From: a virus
Lineage: Duplodnaviria > Heunggongvirae > Uroviricota > Caudoviricetes
Reading direction: 5' to 3' (one strand)
IMG/VR virus record: IMGVR_UViG_2667527592_000002
Length of the DNA stretch: 64,000 nt
Shown here: in pieces, positions 10,087-47,491 of the stretch
How the letters are laid out: each line of letters begins with the position of its first letter
Numbering within the stretch: position 1 is the stretch's first letter
Notes under the pieces: generated by a model
The model's database searches: none
What the model saw: only the letters and a program-made list of their open reading frames with translations
What the model was told of the DNA's origin: nothing
Position numbers and translations under genes: made by a program

Positions 10087-10098
10087 TGTGTTAGAAAA
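10087..10098 (+). promoter_or_regulatory. TGTTAGAAAA-type recurrent motif
   Basis: tgtgttagaaaa; second partial copy tgtttctaaat about 10 nt downstream. Confidence 0.4.
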
Positions 10099-19951: not shown

Positions 19952-20446
19952 TTGTTGTTATTATTTCGCATATTTACTATCAATAGGTATGTTAGAAAAA
20001 TATCGCGAAAGAGAAGGCGTCGCAGTGAATATTCTGAAACATCCCCACATGCCGCAGCTCTTAGAGAACTGGAGAAAAACCCAGATCTAATCAAAAGGAA
20101 CCATGAGCATTACGAGCAGGTTCGCGTCCTGGACTGGTTGTATCGCAATATGCGTTATGTGTATGAGCATACTCACGCCACTCCAAACGGTGGCCTGCGA
20201 GGCATAAGGACGGCAATAAAAATGGTGGCAGAGGGCCAAAAGAAGGGATATCCCGATCTTTCTATAGACCTTGCTTGTGGGGGATACCACGGAATGCGCA
20301 TTGAGATGAAACATGGGAGAAATCGCCTGACTCCCGAACAACTCGTCTGGATGACCCGCCTCACTGAAGCCGGTTACTACTGCTTTGAGGCGCGCAGTGC
20401 CGCTGAAGCCATAAAAGCTATCACGGAGTATGTTTGTCTTGATTAA
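19952..20446 (+). CDS. VRR-NUC domain nuclease (start uncertain)
   Basis: ...KKGYPDLSIDLACGGYHGMRIEMKHGRNRLTPEQLVWMTRLTEAGYYCF...; PD-(D/E)xK-type motif. Confidence 0.6.
   Translation: MLLLFRIFTINRYVRKISRKRRRRSEYSETSPHAAALRELEKNPDLIKRNHEHYEQVRVLDWLYRNMRYVYEHTHATPNGGLRGIRTAIKMVAEGQKKGYPDLSIDLACGGYHGMRIEMKHGRNRLTPEQLVWMTRLTEAGYYCFEARSAAEAIKAITEYVCLD
19988..20000 (+). promoter_or_regulatory. TGTTAGAAAA-type recurrent motif
   Basis: tatgttagaaaaa. Confidence 0.4.
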
Positions 20447-20460
20447 ACGGAGAAATCGTT

Positions 20461-20661
20461 TTGCGTTTACTTAACGTGGCAGAACTTATCCCTGCAGGAA
20501 CTAATGCTATCGCTCGTCGTCGCTCATGGCAGCAGGCTCTATGTATTGAGATCTCGAAACGTATCAATGGAAGTTTTGAAGCTCGCAATATTGTTACTGG
20601 CGATAAGGTTCACATAACCCCGGAAAGTGCAAGCGCTGATGATTGGGAGTTTGTACATTGA
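20461..20661 (+). CDS. hypothetical protein
   Basis: 66 aa ORF. Confidence 0.25.
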   Translation: MRLLNVAELIPAGTNAIARRRSWQQALCIEISKRINGSFEARNIVTGDKVHITPESASADDWEFVH

Positions 20662-20957
20662 GCAAAAAATATTATGTGAGTCTGGCGTTCGCTGACGATG
20701 CGGGGAGGACGCGGAGTATCACGTTGAGCACACCGGTTAAGGCTGTGACAGCGCCGTTAATCCGTGAAGCTCTCAGAGAGCTGGAATTGGGTGAAAACTC
20801 GGCACTGTTGTCGGTTAGTTGGTTAGGGAAAATGTCAGAGAAACAATACGTGGATGGAGTTACCCCAATAACAGTAATGAGGCTACTTTCATTGCTGCAA
20901 TGGGCCATCGTACCTGTATTTATCGCGTATCTTATTTATCAGGCTGCAACACAGTAA
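20643..20957 (+). CDS. hypothetical protein with C-terminal transmembrane helix
   Basis: 104 aa, C-terminal LLSLLQWAIVPVFIAYLIY; followed by terminator. Confidence 0.3.
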   Translation: MGVCTLSKKYYVSLAFADDAGRTRSITLSTPVKAVTAPLIREALRELELGENSALLSVSWLGKMSEKQYVDGVTPITVMRLLSLLQWAIVPVFIAYLIYQAATQ

Positions 20958-20965
20958 TTGCATAA

Positions 20966-20992
20966 AAACCCGCCAATTAGCGGGTTTTTTGT
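20966..20992 (+). terminator. rho-independent terminator
   Basis: cccgccaattagcggg + TTTTTT. Confidence 0.65.
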
Positions 20993-21030
20993 TTATTGCA
21001 TCTTCCGATACCGTCATCAAACTAATAAAA

Positions 21031-21043
21031 TATGTTAGAAAAC
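21031..21043 (+). promoter_or_regulatory. TGTTAGAAAA-type recurrent motif
   Basis: tatgttagaaaac about 30 nt upstream of 21071 start. Confidence 0.4.
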
Positions 21044-21070
21044 TAATTTAACAAAGTAACGGGAACAGCA

Positions 21071-22279
21071 ATGAGTCAACACACTGATACTTCTAATCTG
21101 GAAATTATCTCGACAGCAATTGAAACGCTGCGCACACAAATCGCTCTTATACAGAAACGGAATCCGGGTGATGACCTGTCAAAGCGACTGCACGAGAGTG
21201 TCATTGCCACTACAGATAACCTGGTGGCGGAAATCAACAAGCTGCTTGATGATGGGGCAGTTGATTACAATAAGCTGGTGGATCAGTTTGAGGAATACCA
21301 ACAAGCTGTTAATGATGGCTTGATCCGTTTTTCACAAGTCACAGGCGTATCAGCGACAGTTGAAAGCCTGGGTGATGCAGTTAATCAATTTGCCGCGAAT
21401 ATGCGTAATGAGATCGGCAATCTGGAAGCACGTCTTGAACAGGCAAATACACTGCGTAAATCTGCCGAAGCCGATTTGAACCGTTACAAAAAAGACTATC
21501 CGCCCAGCCTGACAAAGCGTCTGGATGTTGCGGAGAAGGATAACCGCGCGCTGAAAAGAGAGCGCCGGGAACTAAAAGAGCGTTTAACCAAGCTCAATCA
21601 GCAATGCATTGATTATCAAGGCGAAGGCGTCACACTGCGTAAAAAGTTAGCTACAGCGCAGAGCATTATCGAAACATTAAAGCGAGAGTGCTCACAGCTT
21701 GGTCACGATCTGAACCGTGCTTGTGGCATGGGACAAAGACCAGAGACATTTCCACTTATGTATGATGGAAGGGATGCCATTGCCTACATCCATGAGTATC
21801 CGCACGGCCTGGTTGCGGAAACTGGGCAGCGTGGCGAAGCACTGCTGACGGCTAATTACCATCAACAAATCAGAACCAATCGCCTGTTAACGATGGATGT
21901 GATCCCATCGGTATGGGGAACGCCGCTTTACTATCGCCTGCCGGGTTTCGAAAAGGACTGGAATACCGACATAGACGAATGTCTCGCAGATAAAATTATG
22001 GCGTACCTGGAGACGGATTTTCCGCGCTTATATCGCCGGATTATGGACTCTAAGGATGCGCCAATCGATGAATTAAAAATGCGTCCGGAGACGCTGGAGG
22101 CAATCAAGCAGACGGAGTTTGATACTGTATTCAGTGTGGCCTGCATTCCAAGCTGTTTCCATGAAAGCATCCCGTTCATGCAAGGAGATCGTCGTCAGGA
22201 AATCATTGACGCTTGCCGGGTATGGGCGAACGAATGGGATAAGAAGAATGGGGGTGTAGAAGATCTTTATGGGAAATAA
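21071..22279 (+). CDS. hypothetical protein, N-terminal coiled coil
   Basis: 402 aa ORF with RBS; no recognisable catalytic motif. Confidence 0.4.
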   Translation: MSQHTDTSNLEIISTAIETLRTQIALIQKRNPGDDLSKRLHESVIATTDNLVAEINKLLDDGAVDYNKLVDQFEEYQQAVNDGLIRFSQVTGVSATVESLGDAVNQFAANMRNEIGNLEARLEQANTLRKSAEADLNRYKKDYPPSLTKRLDVAEKDNRALKRERRELKERLTKLNQQCIDYQGEGVTLRKKLATAQSIIETLKRECSQLGHDLNRACGMGQRPETFPLMYDGRDAIAYIHEYPHGLVAETGQRGEALLTANYHQQIRTNRLLTMDVIPSVWGTPLYYRLPGFEKDWNTDIDECLADKIMAYLETDFPRLYRRIMDSKDAPIDELKMRPETLEAIKQTEFDTVFSVACIPSCFHESIPFMQGDRRQEIIDACRVWANEWDKKNGGVEDLYGK

Positions 22280-22290
22280 TGTGTTAGAAA
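22280..22290 (+). promoter_or_regulatory. TGTTAGAAAA-type recurrent motif
   Basis: tgtgttagaaa. Confidence 0.4.
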
Positions 22291-22436
22291 TCTAAAATCA
22301 CAATTCGAATGTATTGATTGTGGAGATAACTTAACATAGAATTTTCCTTGCTGGTGGGCGGTACCCACGTTTCGCTTGCTGGGCTTGATAGTCACTTATT
22401 GGTTATTGTTCGCCAACCAGCATTTAACAAATTAAA

Positions 22437-22448
22437 GTGTTAGAAAAG
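22437..22448 (+). promoter_or_regulatory. TGTTAGAAAA-type recurrent motif
   Basis: gtgttagaaaag. Confidence 0.4.
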
Positions 22449-23032
22449 TATGGTAATGCAAGAGCACGCTTTGGCACCGTGCAGGCCAAAGTTCAGCAGG
22501 TTTAGTGCGGAAAGTGGTTTCAGAGAGAGCACTTTGCGGAGTAAACGACAATACATGTTGAGCCACGGAAGGTCTTTTTAAGGTGTTCATTGATGATGGT
22601 CCGGCAGAGAGTAACGGTACATGCTGCATCTAATCATCAATGCACATCTTCAACATTAAGGAGGCATAGGGATTTTTGTGGCGGTTACCTTTTGCCCTGA
22701 GTCTCCTTAATGTTGCGGTAATGCACCTATGCGGATGTGGCCTTGCATTGTGTCTTGAAAGAATGGGGTAAGGCCGGGGATATCCCCAGGGGGAGGCACC
22801 CCCGCTGCAACGAACAGCCACAGACGGCAGTCGAGTGATGGAAACGTGTAAAGACTTTAAACCTCGTTACGGCTGGCGTGGCAAACGCGACAACCGAGAC
22901 AGAGCGGTGACGGGCGGAGAGAGTGCCGCATCAAGAAAGAAGCCGACTTGTGATCCCTTTCTGCGGGCATTTGAAAGTGAATCCAGCTCAGGCAGTCGGC
23001 TTCTTTCTTGTGTGAGATGTAGCGTATTTGCC

Positions 23033-23056
23033 CATCTTCGGGTGGGCTTTTTTAGG
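23033..23056 (+). terminator. hairpin with UUCG tetraloop plus T-run
   Basis: gcccatc-ttcg-ggtgggc + tttttt in ORF-free region upstream of tRNAs. Confidence 0.5.
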
Positions 23057-23513
23057 GTTTTCGTCATGGTTAGCGACTTTGCGGCGGTTTAGAAACCGAC
23101 CATTAAAGTAAATGCAAACGATGATCTGATGATGGTAGCGGCCTAAGAAGCCTGACGCCACGGGGTATGAGTCGTCCCCCGTCAAAAAATCGACCGCAGA
23201 GTGTCCCCGTCTGTGTATTAGGGAACGGGGAGGCATAACAGGCAAGGGCGCTGGTGTGATTAACCAGATGAATGAGAAGGGTCAGGTCTTTCTGGTCAGC
23301 GCCCTTACCTGTTACGTCCCTCCCGCGTAACAGCCATTGCTTGATGGTATATGGGAAAGTTTGTTGGTTACGGGTATATCCCGTCATGCTGAAGGCGCTA
23401 ATCACGCTGGAAGCCAGGGTTATGCATCCCCTGTTACTGAATTGCAGCCAGGGCGCGGTGCGCCGAAAAGCATACGGAGGTGGAAGCCCTCGCCGGAGAC
23501 GTACCCGGCAAGT

Positions 23514-23589
23514 GATGGTGTAGCTCAGCGGTTAGAGCGGTTGACTGTTAATCAACGGGTCGATGGTTCAAATCCATCCACCATCGCCA
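23514..23589 (+). tRNA. tRNA-Asn (anticodon GTT)
   Basis: 76 nt cloverleaf folded by hand; acceptor GATGGTG/CACCATC, T-loop TTCAAAT, anticodon loop CTGTTAA, encoded CCA. Confidence 0.9.
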
Positions 23590-23591
23590 AT

Positions 23592-23667
23592 GCCGGTTTA
23601 GCTCAGTTGGTAGAGCGCCTGCCTTGTAAGCAGGATGTCAGCGGTTCGAGTCCGTTAACCGGCACCA
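23592..23667 (+). tRNA. tRNA-Thr (anticodon TGT)
   Basis: 76 nt; acceptor GCCGGTT/AACCGGC, D-arm GCTCAGTTGGTAGAGC, anticodon loop CTTGTAA, CCA. Confidence 0.9.
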
Positions 23668-23677
23668 GCACAACAGG

Positions 23678-23757
23678 TAAGGGTATTTTGCGACGTCGGA
23701 GATCGCCGAGCTTGGCAGAGGGTTCGAATCCCTACGAAGTACCCTTACCGTTGTGAT
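23678..23757 (+). ncRNA. tRNA-like degenerate hairpin module (unit A)
   Basis: GGTAAGGGTA...GGTTCGAATCCC...TACCCTTACC: acceptor-like stem and T-loop-like element but no canonical cloverleaf and no CCA. Confidence 0.3.
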
Positions 23758-23889
23758 GAATGCGCAGGCTGATGCGCGAAAGACATTGCAGCTATTGCGG
23801 AAAAGAGCTGTCCGGCGGGGCAATTAAACGCCCGTGAGAGTCTGAAATAACCGCAAGCCGGAGATCAGCACCGGTCATCACAACACAAC

Positions 23890-23950
23890 AGGTAAGGGCA
23901 TTCTCCCTTATGGGGCTTGGCTTAAATGCATCGAGTGCTCTTACCGTTGT
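23890..23950 (+). ncRNA. hairpin module (unit B) sharing leader and trailer with unit A
   Basis: GGTAAGGGC...GCTCTTACC stem of about 9 bp; flanked by ggagatcagcacc leader and cgttgtgatgaa trailer. Confidence 0.25.
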
Positions 23951-24337
23951 GATGAAGTGCAGCTCTTTGAAGCAACCAGAAGATAAGCATCTGGCTTCAC
24001 AACATAAACCGCAGGAACGACCAATAAACGGTAGTCCGTATGGAGAACACCCCGTTGAGGAAGAGGCCTGGCCGGAACCGTAACCGGCACTACAACGTTG
24101 AGAACACTGGCGTAACGGGGTCATATCCCAATCTACGAATAAATGTTGCGTTGCAGCGTGACAACCAGTGTTCTCAACATTGTGGTGAATGCGTGTTGCT
24201 GGCGCGCAAGTCCGCCCTATGGCAACGAGGCGGCGTAGTAAATATCGATGCCTCAGTCATCAAGCGCACTGACCGGCCTTATGGGCTATGAAAAAAAGAG
24301 GCGCAGTCGGAGATCAGCACCGACCACCACAATCAAT

Positions 24338-24424
24338 GGAGAGTAGGGAGCATGGTGCTCAAGCGGTCTTGAAAACCGTCCCATTGCGCAAGCGATGATG
24401 GTTCGATTCCATTACTCTCCGCCA
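24338..24424 (+). tRNA. tRNA-Ser-like (anticodon TGA), long variable arm, atypical D-arm
   Basis: acceptor GGAGAGT/ACTCTCC, anticodon arm GCGGTCTTGAAAACCGT, T-loop TTCGATT, CCA; D-arm non-canonical. Confidence 0.6.
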
Positions 24425-24584
24425 TCGCAACGTTAAGAGTATTTGGCTAATTAAGCGAATGCCGGAAGCAGAACCGGATCACCAAATGCGTACAGGCGTC
24501 ATCGCCGCCCAGCCAGCCAAGTGCTCTTACCATTGCGGTGAATGCGGCTAAGCGCACGCGGAACAGTTAAAACAATCCTCCTTA

Positions 24585-24908
24585 GTGGTTAAGTCAAACA
24601 TCCCGGCGTTAATTGTTAACTGGTTAACGTCACCTGGAGGCACCAGGCACCGCAATCTAATAAAGTTTCAAGCAATGGGGTTTTTGTTGTCAGACTTCAG
24701 ATATAGATGGTTGTGGAAGGAGAGCCTGTACATAGTGCAGTTATTTCTTCCGCTATTTGTCTGCTTTGTCATGCTTCCTGAGCTGAAATACGCAATTTCA
24801 GACACTTTAAGCACTATCGTTACTTTTGTGTTTTATCTTTACTTTGATTACTTATTGAGCACTAAAATCAATGAATTATCCGAGGAAATGCAAGGTGGCT
24901 GTAAGTGA
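24585..24908 (+). CDS. small hydrophobic protein (start uncertain)
   Basis: ORF between tRNAs with two predicted TM helices. Confidence 0.25.
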   Translation: MVKSNIPALIVNWLTSPGGTRHRNLIKFQAMGFLLSDFRYRWLWKESLYIVQLFLPLFVCFVMLPELKYAISDTLSTIVTFVFYLYFDYLLSTKINELSEEMQGGCK

Positions 24909-24909
24909 T

Positions 24910-25038
24910 GGATTTTTGGGCGTTTGCCGATAAGAACCCTGGTTGGACATTTTTATTTTTGCTGGTGGTTGCATATGGGGTCGAGCAAGCGGCTAAAGCC
25001 TTACGCGGTTCTGGCAAAAAGCGTAAGCGGAATTAACA
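24910..25038 (+). CDS. small membrane protein (42 aa; below ORF-track cutoff)
   Basis: MDFWAFADKNPGWTFLFLLVVAYGVEQAAKALRGSGKKRKRN; one TM helix, basic tail. Confidence 0.25.
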
Positions 25039-25045
25039 GTAATCT

Positions 25046-25121
25046 GGCCCTTTAGCTCAGTGGTTAGAGCAGGCGACTCATAATCGCACGGTCACCGGTT
25101 CAAATCCGGTAGGGGCCACCA
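25046..25121 (+). tRNA. tRNA-Ile2-like (anticodon CAT, lysidine type) or tRNA-Met
   Basis: 76 nt; near-identical arms to E. coli ileX as recalled: GGCCCTTTAGCTCAGTGGTTAGAGCAGGCGACTCATAATCGC... Confidence 0.9.
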
Positions 25122-25575
25122 TATTTGGTTGTAACACGGCGTATGGCACATGCGTCGTTAGCGGTCTGGTGTAGCTGTTAGGTACCTTACTAACACTGCA
25201 TGGGCACATCAGGTAGCCGGAATGTGCAAGTCACCGCTGGAGGGATAGCGGACTCAGGGACTCACCATCCTGGCGATTCGGTGTGACAGCCGGAATAGCA
25301 CGGCGCACAACAGGAAAAGGCGTTTAATTAACGCGAGCGCCGTTTCCGTTGTGGTAATTGCGGCTATGCGCTCGTGACGAAGCCATTTTCATTCACTACG
25401 TTCTGATAAGTGACGTCGCCGGGAGTGGCTAACCTGGCAGGTGGAGGCACCACCGCCACAACTCCTTTCAATTCATCATATAGCCGCTCAGGCTGTACCC
25501 CTTAATTAATACGAAGTTACGACATCACTACCGGTACTTCCGGGGGATAGTCGCGCGTGTAAAAAAGGAGACGTT

Positions 25576-26151
25576 ATGTTAATGGCGAACGATAACGCAT
25601 ATGCAGAAGAAGATCTCATTTTGAGTGACTTCATAGGGAAGCGGGAACGCTGGACCCAAAAGCGAGAGGAACTTTACGCCTCATTAGTTCGCAAAGGCGT
25701 CAATATCGAAACCGCACAAAGCGGCGATATGACAGTGGTAAGCGTTGGATTGCACGGTGTAAGCGTGTCAGCAATCAATCATGAGCCATACGTTGCGTTA
25801 TCCGAGTCAATGGTAAGGTTAGTTAAGTTCCTGAAGTACACAGAAGCGAATAATGTAATCATTGGCAAAAAGAATATCCCTTTTTCCTCGGCTTTTTACT
25901 GGATGATGAAAGGGCTTGATGCCCGGCGGACATCATGGCCTAAAGGGAGCTATATATCGATGTTCCGTGGCAGCATTGGCAGCAAAGAAAAGCTCTTCGA
26001 ATTCTTGCCGGAAGAGGCATTCGATATTGTGGAAGGGTGCGATGTGATGGTGATGCCTCGCCTGGTAATGATGAATGGGGATTTACAGGCGCAGACAGAC
26101 TGGTTTGCAACTGGTGTGGATATTATCGCGACTGACTGGGAGGCTTTCTGA
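25576..26151 (+). CDS. hypothetical protein with DUF2829-like C-terminal region
   Basis: ...AFYWMMKGLDARRTSWPKGSYISM...QTDWFATGVDIIATDWEAF. Confidence 0.35.
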   Translation: MLMANDNAYAEEDLILSDFIGKRERWTQKREELYASLVRKGVNIETAQSGDMTVVSVGLHGVSVSAINHEPYVALSESMVRLVKFLKYTEANNVIIGKKNIPFSSAFYWMMKGLDARRTSWPKGSYISMFRGSIGSKEKLFEFLPEEAFDIVEGCDVMVMPRLVMMNGDLQAQTDWFATGVDIIATDWEAF

Positions 26152-26543
26152 TGTACGGGACTACCAAATTAAGCACTCAACAGGCCACCAATATGGAGTG
26201 GTCTATCGCTAACTGTAAGATTGTGTCATGCAATGCCACGCGTACTGATGTGGGCCATAAAAGCACTATAACAGGCTATCTAGTAATGACCACCAGGGGG
26301 ATGAGGGTTAGATTTCGCTGGAAAGCAGAGCAAGTAACGCCATTCAGAGAGCCATCAATGCCGCTGCAGGTTGAGCAGGATTATCTATGTTTACCAGAAA
26401 TAGATGGAGGAATGCTGGTGGAGTCTGATGGTAGTAAGGCTGATTTTGAAGCCAATTTGAAGCTGGCACAGGCCGTAATCAATAGTTATCGCGGAAAGTG
26501 GATCGCAAAAGTGAAACATGTTGTTCGTTTGTCTCGCTGGTAG
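26151..26543 (+). CDS. hypothetical protein
   Basis: 130 aa ORF, ATGA overlap with upstream gene. Confidence 0.3.
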   Translation: MYGTTKLSTQQATNMEWSIANCKIVSCNATRTDVGHKSTITGYLVMTTRGMRVRFRWKAEQVTPFREPSMPLQVEQDYLCLPEIDGGMLVESDGSKADFEANLKLAQAVINSYRGKWIAKVKHVVRLSRW

Positions 26544-26651
26544 CGTTAGGTATTTAATATTAGTTTTCTAATATAATCATCTTTTTACCAGTCTATACAG
26601 TTTTAACATTCTCATTATCATCCCCTCGGTCATTTCCTGCCCGGGGGATTA

Positions 26652-27044
26652 ATGGAACAAATCAGCAGCGCAGAAATTGCGGATATCATGATCAGGGCTG
26701 ACTGCTATCTGACAGTCACTGAAATTACCACTCTCGCCAAAGAAAAATACCCTCATCTCCATGTTTCACGAGTAAGTGTAACTAACATCATTCGTCATTT
26801 TGTTCGTTCAAGCAGGGCAATCTGTGAGCTGGATGATCGTGTGTATCCACGAAAATACTGGCTACATGGTCTGAACGGATATCAGTTCAAGGTGCGCGGG
26901 CGCACGCCTGAATACGGTAGCTTACTGGTTAAAAACTGTAGCAGGAAATCAGTCGAACAGGCGCGAAAAGAGCAACGAGAGCTGGTGGACATGGCGAATA
27001 AGCTGTGGAATGCCGCCGTTAAAAAGCGTGGTGTTGCTTTATGA
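26652..27044 (+). CDS. hypothetical protein (late-activator position upstream of terminase genes)
   Basis: 130 aa; position only. Confidence 0.3.
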   Translation: MEQISSAEIADIMIRADCYLTVTEITTLAKEKYPHLHVSRVSVTNIIRHFVRSSRAICELDDRVYPRKYWLHGLNGYQFKVRGRTPEYGSLLVKNCSRKSVEQARKEQRELVDMANKLWNAAVKKRGVAL

Positions 27045-28405
27045 GTCTGGTTAATTGGGAGGAGCACCGCGCCCGCTTTATAGCGTTGCGTGAAGAAAAA
27101 GGGATCACTGTAAAGGAATACTGTGAGGAGCATGGCCTTAGCTTCAATACAGCCAGAAAGCATCTCAATATGAAAAAAAATGAGGTGCGGTCGCAGGTAA
27201 AGACAACAAAAAAAAGCACCAAATCACCTGAAAAAAAACGGGCGGGAAGAGCAACAAAAAAGCTGGAAGAGGGTGCAGAAAAAACAAAATTTACAGAAAT
27301 TGACAATTCGCAGGGTGCAGGTTCTTTCCGAAGTATGCCAAGAAAGAAAACTTCGGATCATGAAAGTAATTCCAATAATAACAATGAGATAAAAGAATCT
27401 GTCAGGAGATCATTGCGCGAAAAAATGGCGAAAATGATCCCCGAAGAAGATAAAAGCGCCCCAAAAATTGAGGGATCTTCAGCAATGATCCCTGGCGGTG
27501 CTGTGCAACGTGCCACATTGCCCACTACGAATGTGGCTCGCGACATGATGAAGAACGGCGCAGAAGAACACCTGCGGTTAGCAATTCAAATGGCGCAAGA
27601 GCGCGCACTTCAGTATCAAAGCATTGTTGATCAGGAGGCCGAACGTCTACAGGCGGAAATAGACGCCTTGGGCGATAAAGAGCCAGAAGGAATGCACCCT
27701 GGGCAGCGCCTTCTCGGTCTAATCAGTGACGCGGCCTACTACATGAATGATTTTATCAGTAGGTTGGCAGCTATATATCAGTCCGAACAAAAGCTGCGAC
27801 AGGGGGATGAAAAGCTTCGTCAGAGCGCTCGCCAGCAAGCATTCAAAGAGGCTGAGGCCAGAGAAAAACTCGAATTAGCACGCCTACAGGCCGAACAGCG
27901 TGGCAAAGAGATTGAATATCGCATTGGCGCTGACGCACGCGCTGCCAGAGTTATCGCCGCCGCTATACGTATGCGTGAGCGCGAGGAACTGGATGATATC
28001 GGTGTTGCTGAATACATCGAGCGCCAGGGGGTCAGCGTCCCGGCTATCCTCGCGGCGCGCGCGGCGAAAGCTATCACTCTTCTCGAACCACCTGTTTCTG
28101 ACGTCAATGATGTTGATGATGAACAGCTGGACAAAGAGGCAAGGGAGTTTGCAACGCTTCAGGCTAACCATCCGCAATGGCTGGCAGAGCGCCGGGCGGA
28201 TGTGGCAACCATTGTTGAAGAATTGGGGTGCGGAGATTACGACCGCAATGGCGAGCGTAAAGCTGGAGAATTCGAGGCCAGCGACGAAGAGCTGGATATT
28301 GACCCTTCGGCAACGGCTGAAATTTACGGTGATTATGATGCATCTGATGCAGGGTATGACGCCGGAGATGATGATATCGCGATAGAACCGCCGGAGGATG
28401 ATTAA
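27041..28405 (+). CDS. terminase small subunit-like (PacA-like)
   Basis: 454 aa, N-terminal HTH-like region, basic linker, acidic C-terminus; directly upstream of large terminase. Confidence 0.45.
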   Translation: MSLVNWEEHRARFIALREEKGITVKEYCEEHGLSFNTARKHLNMKKNEVRSQVKTTKKSTKSPEKKRAGRATKKLEEGAEKTKFTEIDNSQGAGSFRSMPRKKTSDHESNSNNNNEIKESVRRSLREKMAKMIPEEDKSAPKIEGSSAMIPGGAVQRATLPTTNVARDMMKNGAEEHLRLAIQMAQERALQYQSIVDQEAERLQAEIDALGDKEPEGMHPGQRLLGLISDAAYYMNDFISRLAAIYQSEQKLRQGDEKLRQSARQQAFKEAEAREKLELARLQAEQRGKEIEYRIGADARAARVIAAAIRMREREELDDIGVAEYIERQGVSVPAILAARAAKAITLLEPPVSDVNDVDDEQLDKEAREFATLQANHPQWLAERRADVATIVEELGCGDYDRNGERKAGEFEASDEELDIDPSATAEIYGDYDASDAGYDAGDDDIAIEPPEDD

Positions 28406-46290: not shown

Positions 46291-47084
46291 TGTTTACCTC
46301 CTTTTCGAAGCTGTTCGGCGATATCTTCGAGAACGCCATCAGAGAATGAGCGGTCAAAATCGCCTTCCCGCGCATTAGCCATAAACTCAGTAGAGGTAAG
46401 AATCATCCGGGCAATATCCGCGGCGTTCTTCGCAGTATCATCAATAAAACCAGCTTCCCAAGCAGCCAGCATCCTGTTCGCCACAAAGTAAGCGCCCTCC
46501 TTGCGTGCTTCAGTCTTCACTTCATCCAGGAAAGTGTCGGTCGCAGGAGTGGTTTTTTGTGGTGATAGGGCGATACGAATTGTTTCAAGAGCTGGATCTA
46601 TTTCCACTGTTGGCACCTTGATAAAACCAAGCTGCACGCCATTCATAATGAACGTGCGGCGATCCTCACATATCGCCTTCAGTCTCGCATTCTCCGCAGC
46701 CAGCGCCGCGCGATTACCCTCCAGCTCTGCAATGCGCTGTTTTGCGGCATCAAGTTCAATCGATAATTTTTCCAACTGCTCTTTATGCTTCTTGTATTCC
46801 TGATATGCGTGCCAAGACTGACCTTTGCGCACACTATCAGTAATATCAGTAATCTGTTCTGGTGTTAGCGTGGTCAGTGGCTGTGCTGGGAAAATCAGCA
46901 CTTTCCCGGAATCCCAATCAAAACCAGCGTGAATTGACTGAACCTCAACTGAGGGTGTTGAACCAATGCTGCCAGGCGAATGAACAACGATCGTTACATC
47001 CATATCGCGACGATGGCTGTGGTTATTGGACAAAATACGATTCACCAACTCAGAAAATTTGGAGAATTTCATGCGGAGCCTCAA
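46287..47084 (-). CDS. coiled-coil protein, paralogue of 47488..47991
   Basis: shared C-terminal block ...FL.E...EAR.EG......R.LAA...GFI......R..DV.RMIL...E..AN... Confidence 0.35.
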   Translation of the reverse strand: MRLRMKFSKFSELVNRILSNNHSHRRDMDVTIVVHSPGSIGSTPSVEVQSIHAGFDWDSGKVLIFPAQPLTTLTPEQITDITDSVRKGQSWHAYQEYKKHKEQLEKLSIELDAAKQRIAELEGNRAALAAENARLKAICEDRRTFIMNGVQLGFIKVPTVEIDPALETIRIALSPQKTTPATDTFLDEVKTEARKEGAYFVANRMLAAWEAGFIDDTAKNAADIARMILTSTEFMANAREGDFDRSFSDGVLEDIAEQLRKGGKQ

Positions 47085-47491
47085 TATGCAAAATAGACAG
47101 TTGCCACACCGTTATAGTGATCAAACGATACGGCGTTTACTTCATAGCTGGCAGGAAGCTTCGAGCCGAGAACGTATCCGGGCCACGTTTTCCATGGAAT
47201 TTCTCTACTCTCACTATCCCCATATACCGTACATCCAAGCGAACCTACAGCCTCGTCAGAACGTTTGCCGCATGTTATGAAACCTATATTTTTCTTGCTG
47301 GCCTTAATGGCGATTGGGTGAACACTGGCTGATGCATTGGCAGCACGCTGTGACTGTTGGTTTGCGATATTCGCAGAGTTCGCAGCAGCTACAGCAGCCG
47401 TGGTCGCGGCGGTAGATGCCACAATAACTGCTGAAGCCTGCGCCTGTTGGGTAATGGTCAGCAATGCCGCCACAAAAATCATCTTCTTCAC
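47081..47491 (-). CDS. secreted protein with signal peptide
   Basis: MKKMIFVAALLTITQQAQA signal-like N-terminus. Confidence 0.35.
   Translation of the reverse strand: MKKMIFVAALLTITQQAQASAVIVASTAATTAAVAAANSANIANQQSQRAANASASVHPIAIKASKKNIGFITCGKRSDEAVGSLGCTVYGDSESREIPWKTWPGYVLGSKLPASYEVNAVSFDHYNGVATVYFAY

Follow-up and report, generated by a model that had tools for sequence, protein, structure and literature searches.

A hairpin-rich gap upstream of the tRNA genes of a D6-like phage-plasmid

The DNA analysed here, hereafter the window, is a stretch of 64,000 nucleotides (nt) from a virus of the class Caudoviricetes (IMG/VR record IMGVR_UViG_2667527592_000002), and the element under study is a run of long hairpins held in a 1.23-kb gene-free gap between pmgS and the gene for tRNA-Asn. 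Within the P1 family of phage-plasmids, the window is of the D6-like kind: phage D6 matched a 1.24-kb query at 98.3% identity, and identities of the region to D6 and to plasmids of Escherichia coli span 98-100%. Comparison sequences are referred to by L numbers. The features that make up the element and its immediate flanks are listed below, where z compares folding with that of shuffled sequences.

21071-22279: PmgS-like head-morphogenesis gene, flanking the gap upstream
22577..22653, + strand: hairpin A, stem core CATTGATGATG/CATCATCAATG with a variable apex; z = -4.0
22651..22715, + strand: hairpin B, 13-bp perfect stem plus an inner AGGG/CCCT helix; z = -5.4
22716..22811, + strand: conserved core with two small G/C hairpins, GGGGAUAUCCCC and GGGGGAGGCACCCCC; stability ordinary, z = -1.3
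22812..22931, + strand: module B, conserved in sequence yet dispensable; z = -0.2
22932..23010, + strand: hairpin C, 17-bp perfect stem plus an inner CUUUC/GAAAG helix; z = -4.0
23030..23053, + strand: intrinsic terminator, GCCCAUC-UUCG-GGUGGGC then U6; -12.5 kcal/mol
23057..23513, + strand: tRNA-proximal leader in common with P1 (~91% identical), part of the same operon and outside the element itself
23514..23667, + strand: tRNA-Asn(GUU) and tRNA-Thr(UGU), the first downstream genes (ARAGORN, Rfam)

Sequence reading and a repeat search placed the arms of hairpin B at 22651-22663 (CAACATTAAGGAG) and 22703-22715 (CTCCTTAATGTTG), where they pair perfectly at 13 of 13 positions around a 39-nt loop, just as the preliminary description of this DNA had it; in the repeat search the inverted repeat lengthens to 21-nt arms at 86%. 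Within the arms lie TAAGGAGG (5') and CTCCTTA (3'). The second repeat, given earlier as about 16 bp near 22931..23010, is present with perfect arms of 17 bp (17/17), CAAGAAAGAAGCCGACT at 22932-22948 with AGTCGGCTTCTTTCTTG at 22994-23010. Hairpin A, which had not been described before, was found by repeat search (22577-22597 with 22633-22653, 21 nt at 86%) and abuts hairpin B. The run closes with GCCCATC-TTCG-GGTGGGC at 23030-23047, followed by T6 at 23048-23053; this hairpin and its T-run had been recognized earlier, but placed 3 nt too far to the right (23033..23056). Its stem of 7 bp includes five G-C pairs and one G·U pair, is capped by a UUCG tetraloop closed by C-G and is followed by U6, and the whole folds at -12.5 kcal/mol with a z of -3.3 against shuffles. 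The segment 23030-23053 has the G+C-rich stem, short loop and adjoining U-tract of an intrinsic terminator and, together with the U-rich stretch before it (GUAUUU-hairpin-UUUUUU), the layout of an Hfq-type 3' end.

Chance levels were estimated from 500 dinucleotide-preserving shuffles of 22640-23060, in which the longest perfect inverted repeat with a loop of 3-60 nt never exceeded 12 (median 7), as against 17 and 13 in the window. The length of helix expected of an RNase III substrate, ~20 bp of continuous pairing, is found in hairpins B (15 + 5 bp), C (~19 bp) and A (7 + 10 bp).

Pairing is conserved on the + strand and coding capacity is not

Conservation was scored on an alignment of 32 distinct versions of the region, with 18 and 23 distinct rows in its two sub-alignments. 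Over the stems as a whole, 97-98% of cells pair, compared with 40-51% when the partner is slid; for hairpin C, in which four pairs are altered on both sides, the values are 98.4% and 40-51%. The stem of hairpin A is kept in all relatives, with variation between Watson-Crick and G·U pairs and with an extended stem in some variants, and in that of hairpin B two pairs have changed in a compensatory way, one from A-U to G-C and one from G-C to A-U, in 7/32 sequences (4/18 distinct). The terminator is kept in P1-type and D6-type elements alike, with exchanges of U·G and C-G and of G-C and G·U. The highest sequence conservation of the D6-specific part is that of the core (22716..22811), where column identity reaches 96-98%.

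The + strand folds better than the - strand both alone (-229 vs -194 kcal/mol) and as an alignment (-79 vs -67 kcal/mol). Polymorphism between Watson-Crick and G·U pairs touches 28 pair positions and 184 cells, as against 12 positions and 13 cells, all of them singletons, for A·C. The preliminary description had named a lack of compensatory base changes in homologues as a ground for refuting its proposal; such changes are present, and together with the G·U changes they fit the + strand only.

Among relatives the hairpin B loop has been replaced, inverted or shortened, and at least three unrelated sequence versions of it exist. All 65 nt of the hairpin occur as the exact reverse complement in L007 (1872-1936) and L018 (4581-4645), the two sources being plasmid NZ_CP058619 and one IMG/VR contig; in the metagenome contig L180 the loop is inverted and carries a 9-nt deletion, and in L010 the 3' arm has been swapped for a copy complementary to the loop. 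Recurrent flipping of the loop as a switch was considered and rejected, the inverted loop being found in 1/117 plasmids only; the inversion is a rare event of the template-switch type and a clean natural example of it.

All open reading frames (ORFs) of at least 30 residues that overlap the region are interrupted in 12-23 of the 32 close relatives, and insertions and deletions among relatives are mostly not multiples of three. No ORF of the region matched Pfam or NCBIfam, and none was found by exact look-up in a collection of 15 billion proteins, in agreement with the earlier statement that no plausible ORF covers the stretch. The flagged stretch proves genuine: its long RNA hairpins are conserved, no protein is encoded across them, and a textbook terminator closes the run. 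The first characterization of the stretch as non-coding, structured and terminator-ended is borne out by the conserved hairpins and by the canonical terminator at 23030-23053.

The element is confined to D6-like phage-plasmids and is built of exchangeable modules

In PLSDB, 121 plasmids carry the D6-specific part at 79-100% identity; they belong to Escherichia, Salmonella and Shigella, and there is one further record from Pantoea. Of 5426 complete E. coli genomes, 99 have the gap, in every case on a plasmid, and none has a chromosomal copy. Scans anchored on pmgS and pattern scans, run over one genome per species, returned no wider homologues, and those of IMG/VR and of metagenomes yielded the same D6-like types only, with no gain in phylogenetic depth; the core 22716..22811 turned up in D6-like elements only. 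One AT-rich phage contig (L133) has the terminator stem in common by coincidence and was set aside as unrelated. No annotated feature lies beneath the D6-specific part in any PLSDB or E. coli record that carries it, and searching 4227 Rfam models at E <= 1 against the window at 20-28 kb and the corresponding loci of P1, L004 and L005 returned tRNAs, an STnc100-like element downstream and noise only. A literature search whose reach did not extend to the P1 and D6 genome papers gave no paper on this leader element, and the P1vir transcriptome papers do not treat the leader. The element is restricted to D6-like phage-plasmids and is without annotation or RNA-family match.

P1 and its relatives match the window only from 23027 on, that is, from the terminator, which is the first block in common and which in P1 closes the annotated 'dicF-like region'. 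From there to the tRNAs, through the terminator and the tRNA-proximal leader, homology continues at ~91%. In P1 the terminator lies ~190 nt downstream of the C1-controlled Pban promoters and is followed by the same ~460-nt leader and then by the tRNAs. IMG/VR contigs with the terminator number ~115, 90 of P1 type (Pban plus the P1 module) and 25 of D6 type. Most columns of the leader at 23057-23513 are >97% conserved in 78 distinct P1-type and D6-type sequences. Among these no ORF is conserved, and no Rfam family matches the leader. The part at 23057-23340 (up to 23513) is more conserved than the flanking protein genes, a constraint that is unexplained.

The P1 module (GGCGGTAAG...GACCATGCGCCTAAGTG), which stands upstream of the terminator in P1, the L004 type, L005 and L006, is absent from the window and from D6; in some D6-type relatives it is inserted between hairpin C and the terminator. 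Module B, in turn, is absent from L005 and L006 and present in L034, and some D6-type relatives lack 22812-22938. Given this insertion and loss among relatives, the units upstream of the terminator behave as exchangeable cassettes.

Compared with the P1 ban-operon leader, in which the 'dicF-like region' (P1 68791-68892) follows the C1-controlled promoters P1ban/P2ban, the window has the same succession of operator/promoter, structured RNA, terminator, ~460-nt leader and tRNA-Asn/tRNA-Thr, although its operator and promoter are predicted. The terminators are essentially identical, the P1 stem having 2 extra bases, and sister D6-type variants carry the P1 module beside hairpin C. In contrast, nothing in P1 or in any other phage record corresponds to ~750 nt of the window, a span that takes in hairpins A-C and the conserved core, and the gene upstream is pmgS in the window and dmt in P1.

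Operator- and promoter-like motifs lie upstream of the hairpins

Four further features, all on the + strand, precede hairpin A:

22274..22299, + strand: operator/promoter-like site 1, AAATAATGTGTTAGAAATC then TAAAAT
22314..22342, + strand: sigma-70-like promoter TTGATT-17-TAGAAT, by consensus match only
22349..22422, + strand: promoter-proximal hairpin, an inverted repeat of TGCTGGTGGGCG with CGCCAACCAGCA; -27.2 kcal/mol, z = -2.1
22430..22454, + strand: operator/promoter-like site 2, AATTAAAGTGTTAGAAAAG then TATGGT, conserved in all relatives

The site at 22314-22342 was the sole promoter-like site returned by a consensus scan of 22000-25500. With up to 3 mismatches allowed, the motif AATTAAAGTGTTAGAAA occurs 4 times in the window versus 0.33 expected; its core TGTTAGAA precedes a -10-like TAnnnT, and every copy is intergenic. 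Two copies of the core TGTTAGAAAA, at 22277 and 22433, precede the -10-like TAnnnT with one base in between, and the same motif, exact or with 1 mismatch, recurs at 10088, 21028, 44492, 49100 and 49760(-), always between genes. A fuller form, (A/T)(A/G)TGTTAGAAAA-N-TAnnnT, may be written for this repeated, intergenic motif. Copies stand before homologues of ant, pmgS and ref and before the tRNA operon; in P1, annotated C1 operators are found at the pmgR/S operon, the ban operon and ssb. The window motif departs from the P1 C1 operator consensus ATTGCTCTAATAAATTT, which has 0 matches in the window at up to 3 mismatches. The TGTTAGAAAA motif is probably the C1 operator/promoter of D6-type elements.

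The predicted RNA occupies the position of DicF and is not a DicF homologue

Synteny with the Qin prophage of E. coli K-12 was examined through the P1 module, which is 78-92% identical over ~98 nt to the Qin sequence directly 5' of mature DicF. The P1 'dicF-like region' (L002 3937-4038) aligns with K-12 Qin (L041 ~2263-2360) as a homologue of the sequence upstream of DicF, and as judged from this alignment the P1 annotation designates a homologue of that upstream sequence, not of DicF. The inner stem of the P1 module varies in a compensatory manner (GGCGGGG/CCCCG, GGCTGGG/CCCAG, GGCTTGG/CCAG). Downstream of the tRNAs, an STnc100-like element at 24534-24654 scores 39.4 bits in Rfam, below the gathering score of 47; its counterparts in L004 and P1 are homologous to the Qin dicF-dicB spacer (L041 2457-2580). 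The window copy itself matches that spacer over no more than 13 nt. STnc100 has been connected with the PasD prophage small RNAs (sRNAs) in a 2026 preprint. The Pas sRNAs of enteropathogenic E. coli prophages, weighed for this link, are chromosomal, lambdoid and unrelated to the hairpin region, and were set aside.

The DicF covariance model (RF00039) had no match at E <= 1 in the window at 20000-28000 or in the P1, L004 and L005 loci, and local alignment of K-12 dicF and its flanks with the window gave a 16-nt match only, to a flank and not to DicF. Membership of the DicF family was rejected on these grounds, neither the covariance model nor sequence similarity connecting the region with the mature 53-nt DicF. 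What the Qin locus has in common with these elements is its dicF flanks, homologous to the P1 module (also termed module D; found in P1 and D6 variants, not in the window) and to the STnc100-like element, which is synteny of the locus and not identity of the RNA. DicF and the RNA predicted here would both be early-operon, repressor-controlled, non-coding and ended by an intrinsic terminator; they differ in that nothing in the window or P1 resembles mature DicF and in that the window RNA would be many times longer than 53 nt. No ftsZ-type target came to light for it, no search having been aimed at one. By sequence comparison, the predicted window RNA corresponds in position to the P1 dicF-like RNA and to Qin DicF, and it falls outside the DicF family. 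DicF itself, in work of Faubladier, Cam and Bouché from 1990, was reportedly found to be matured by RNase III and RNase E.

Two other kinds of RNA invite comparison. Leader-derived sRNAs formed by premature termination, such as StxS of Stx phages and those derived from riboswitches or attenuators, arise where a promoter-proximal transcript stops at an intrinsic terminator upstream of operon genes; the window resembles them by architecture only, and both action in trans and attenuation would be possible. Like GOLLD and ROOL, the region is a structured non-coding stretch of several hundred nucleotides beside a phage tRNA cluster; unlike them, it has no match to these or other Rfam families at the cut-off used above, is a simple string of hairpins with swappable modules in place of an ornate multi-junction fold, and has a very narrow taxonomic range.

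Observations on the downstream tRNA cluster

Long hairpins with related arms (ACAACAGGTAAGGG... with ...CCCTTACCGTTGTGATGAA) are found among the tRNA genes, at 23227-23323, 23666-23760, 23881-23956 and 24088-24189, one of them enclosing GGGTTCGAATCCC, which resembles a T-arm; the hairpins may represent processing signals or tRNA cassettes in decay. The tRNA cargo that follows the leader is Asn-Thr-Ser-Met in the window (23514-25121), and Arg-Tyr-Thr-Ser, Arg-Thr-Ser or Asn-His-Ser in close relatives (L003-L012), a difference that points to cassette-like exchange of tRNA genes.

A proposed modular leader of a repressor-controlled tRNA operon

Building on the observed anatomy, non-coding nature, stem conservation, strand preference, synteny and modularity of the unit, we lean, by a modest measure, towards the view that the tRNA ('ban-like') operon of a D6-type phage-plasmid is repressor-controlled and opens with a highly structured, non-coding leader RNA, a modular leader or attenuator whose body and 3' end are supplied by the region. 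Upon de-repression, transcription would start at one or more promoters that the repeated operator-like motif at ~22.28-22.46 kb overlaps or flanks, proceed rightward past the three long near-perfect hairpins A, B and C and the sequence-conserved spacers between them, and mostly stop at the C(UUCG)G terminator at 23030-23053, yielding an RNA of ~0.6-0.75 kb. With helices of 17-21 bp, such an RNA is likely to be a substrate of RNase III and RNase E, which may cut it into smaller stable pieces, perhaps sRNAs; the 3'-most of these would consist of hairpin C and the terminator, ~120 nt in all, with a U-tail of the Hfq-binding kind. The terminator would serve as an attenuator limiting read-through into the P1-shared leader and the tRNA genes, and the unit as a whole would fill the position of the P1 'dicF-like' RNA and of DicF in the Qin operon, its upstream modules being exchangeable cassettes.

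Both proposals of the preliminary description are modified by this model. The 'small RNA' is indeed non-coding, but it is not compact, the stretch flagged being the 3' two-thirds of a predicted promoter-to-terminator unit of exchangeable modules. The 'leader of the tRNA transcript' does lie upstream of the tRNAs and downstream of operator- and promoter-like motifs, but a strong terminator and a 460-nt leader intervene, so that this designation would hold only with read-through of the terminator.

Several points weigh against the leader/attenuator model. Its promoter, 3' end and processing, like any action in cis or in trans, are inferred from sequence, and the layout of the operator motif also resembles that of the P1 late promoter LPlyz, which leaves the timing of expression uncertain. 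No promoter was detected by consensus scan between the terminator and the tRNAs, so that the attenuator would have to be read through substantially. Putative phage targets stood at chance level, with 19 antisense 11-mers versus ~21 expected, and predicted duplex energies with 81 phage translation-initiation regions were no better than those of shuffled RNA. The family is shallow (82-100% identity, ~18-23 distinct sequences), each compensatory change traces to one or two lineages, and the count of pairs changed on both sides in hairpins A and B was not significant in a shuffle control (272/500 shuffles). Template switching, moreover, acts at this locus, as the loop inversions of L007, L018 and L180 and the arm of L010 attest; since such events can yield paired double changes without selection, the covariation is supportive and not decisive. 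Finally, the best-conserved part, 22716-22931, is not unusually structured, and its constraint is unexplained. As a separate observation, the loop of hairpin B (22671-22684) is perfectly complementary over 14 nt to 47467-47480, near the start of the minus-strand ORF 47081-47491; this is probably a coincidence, ~0.3 such matches being expected by chance and the loop being variable.

Alternative explanations

The best-surviving alternative, which we nonetheless hold to be rather unlikely, is that the hairpins are cis-acting signals only, whether sites for RNase III processing or RNA stability or put-like antitermination elements that alter RNA polymerase to read past the terminator into the tRNAs and distal genes, with no RNA acting in trans. 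Stems that are kept while loops vary, invert or shrink are what would be expected if only the double-stranded helix mattered, and the 17-21-bp length of the helices, the strong terminator between the sole detected promoter region and the tRNAs, and the likewise chain-like succession of long hairpins in the segment after the tRNAs all accord with this explanation. The P1 annotation puts ban under the control of the operator Op72 at Pban; since the same terminator follows Pban, read-through is implied there. However, a purely cis-acting role is a sub-case of the leader model, the sole point of difference being any independent function of the released RNA, and the free gain and loss of modules (module B absent, module D inserted) sits awkwardly with one dedicated antitermination structure.

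We judge it improbable that part of the region is instead an mRNA for a small hydrophobic peptide, be it type-I-toxin-like or a small membrane protein, whose Shine-Dalgarno (SD) sequence is locked in hairpin B. The candidate ORF (22676-22771) has a TTG start and 31 hydrophobic codons (MWRLPFALSLLNVAVMHLCGCGLALCLERMG), and a perfect SD, AAGGAGG at 22658-22664, sits in the 5' arm of hairpin B opposite the anti-SD-like CUCCUUA of the 3' arm; translation would then occur only once the hairpin had been opened or processed. Both ORF and SD can be read in the window sequence, and the conserved, poorly structured segment 22716-22771 falls within the ORF. Loop variants that differ greatly in sequence and length (the L004 type, L025, L005 and the L008 type) keep an in-frame TTG or GTG and a hydrophobic N-terminus. 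Changes within the ORF include the synonymous CGG to CGA or CGT, CTG to CTA, AAT to AAC, GCG to GCA and TGT to TGC, which are equally structure-preserving transitions. Set against this, the start codon is gone in L003, L006, L007, L018 and L180, L006 is in addition frameshifted, L010 is rearranged, and a +1 insertion throughout the clade of L011, L012 and L026-L038 replaces the stop codon by an extension of >20 residues. SD and start are spaced by 11 nt in the window and by 15 nt in L025, and the peptide has no hidden Markov model match and is absent from the protein collection.

Type I toxin mRNAs with a sequestered SD, of the hok, tisB and zorO type, likewise have a short hydrophobic ORF with its SD in a long stem within a highly structured transcript (here a predicted one, on a plasmid prophage), and the ORF at 22676-22771 combines a short hydrophobic reading frame with an SD that can be sequestered. 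They differ in that the window ORF is not kept across close relatives, being lost, shifted or extended in those just listed; nor did a scan of the - strand of the region find a promoter or terminator for an antitoxin RNA, or NCBIfam and Pfam a known toxin family. A stronger form of the same idea, in which hairpin B is a translational lock on a 31-residue toxin-like peptide or small membrane effector in a modular RNA locus and the unit is a new RNA-controlled toxin or a lysis-timing or addiction module of D6-like plasmid prophages in place of a passive leader, we find more doubtful still.

Equally doubtful is the proposal that the palindromes are mutational products, template-switch (quasi-palindrome) events homogenizing a dispensable spacer, or else a cruciform or protein site at the DNA level: the inverted, shortened and replaced copies of hairpin B described above and the loss of modules in some lineages speak for it, and homogenization would give perfect arms of 13 and 17 bp, but the mismatches that are tolerated and widely shared are + strand G·U pairs with A·C confined to singletons, an asymmetry not expected of double-stranded DNA or of neutral palindromes, and the unit is kept at 82-100% identity in ~120 plasmids and the 99 E. 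coli genomes, is wholly lost from none of the D6-like elements, begins with operator/promoter motifs, ends in a canonical terminator and has arms 39-45 bp apart, unlike known dimeric protein sites.

Significance

Structured leader or sRNA units closed by an intrinsic terminator are a familiar, ordinary kind of phage element; the likely mechanism here, be it that of a leader, an attenuator or a processed sRNA, is conventional, and current views are not overturned. The interest of the locus lies in a candidate induction-specific RNA at a position syntenic with dicF and in a clean case of module exchange and loop inversion. E. coli, Salmonella and Shigella commonly carry D6-like and P1-like phage-plasmids, the present element occurring in ~2% of complete E. 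coli genomes, and phage-plasmids are of growing interest as carriers of resistance genes. In these elements, the tRNA/'ban' operon opens with a large conserved non-coding unit that is absent from annotation and from RNA databases. DicF is a regulator of cell division and metabolism. If the leader model is correct, D6-like phage-plasmids would release, upon induction, a repressor-controlled phage RNA from the very locus where Qin encodes DicF, and this RNA would be a candidate for the control of host genes, phage genes or the supply of tRNAs.

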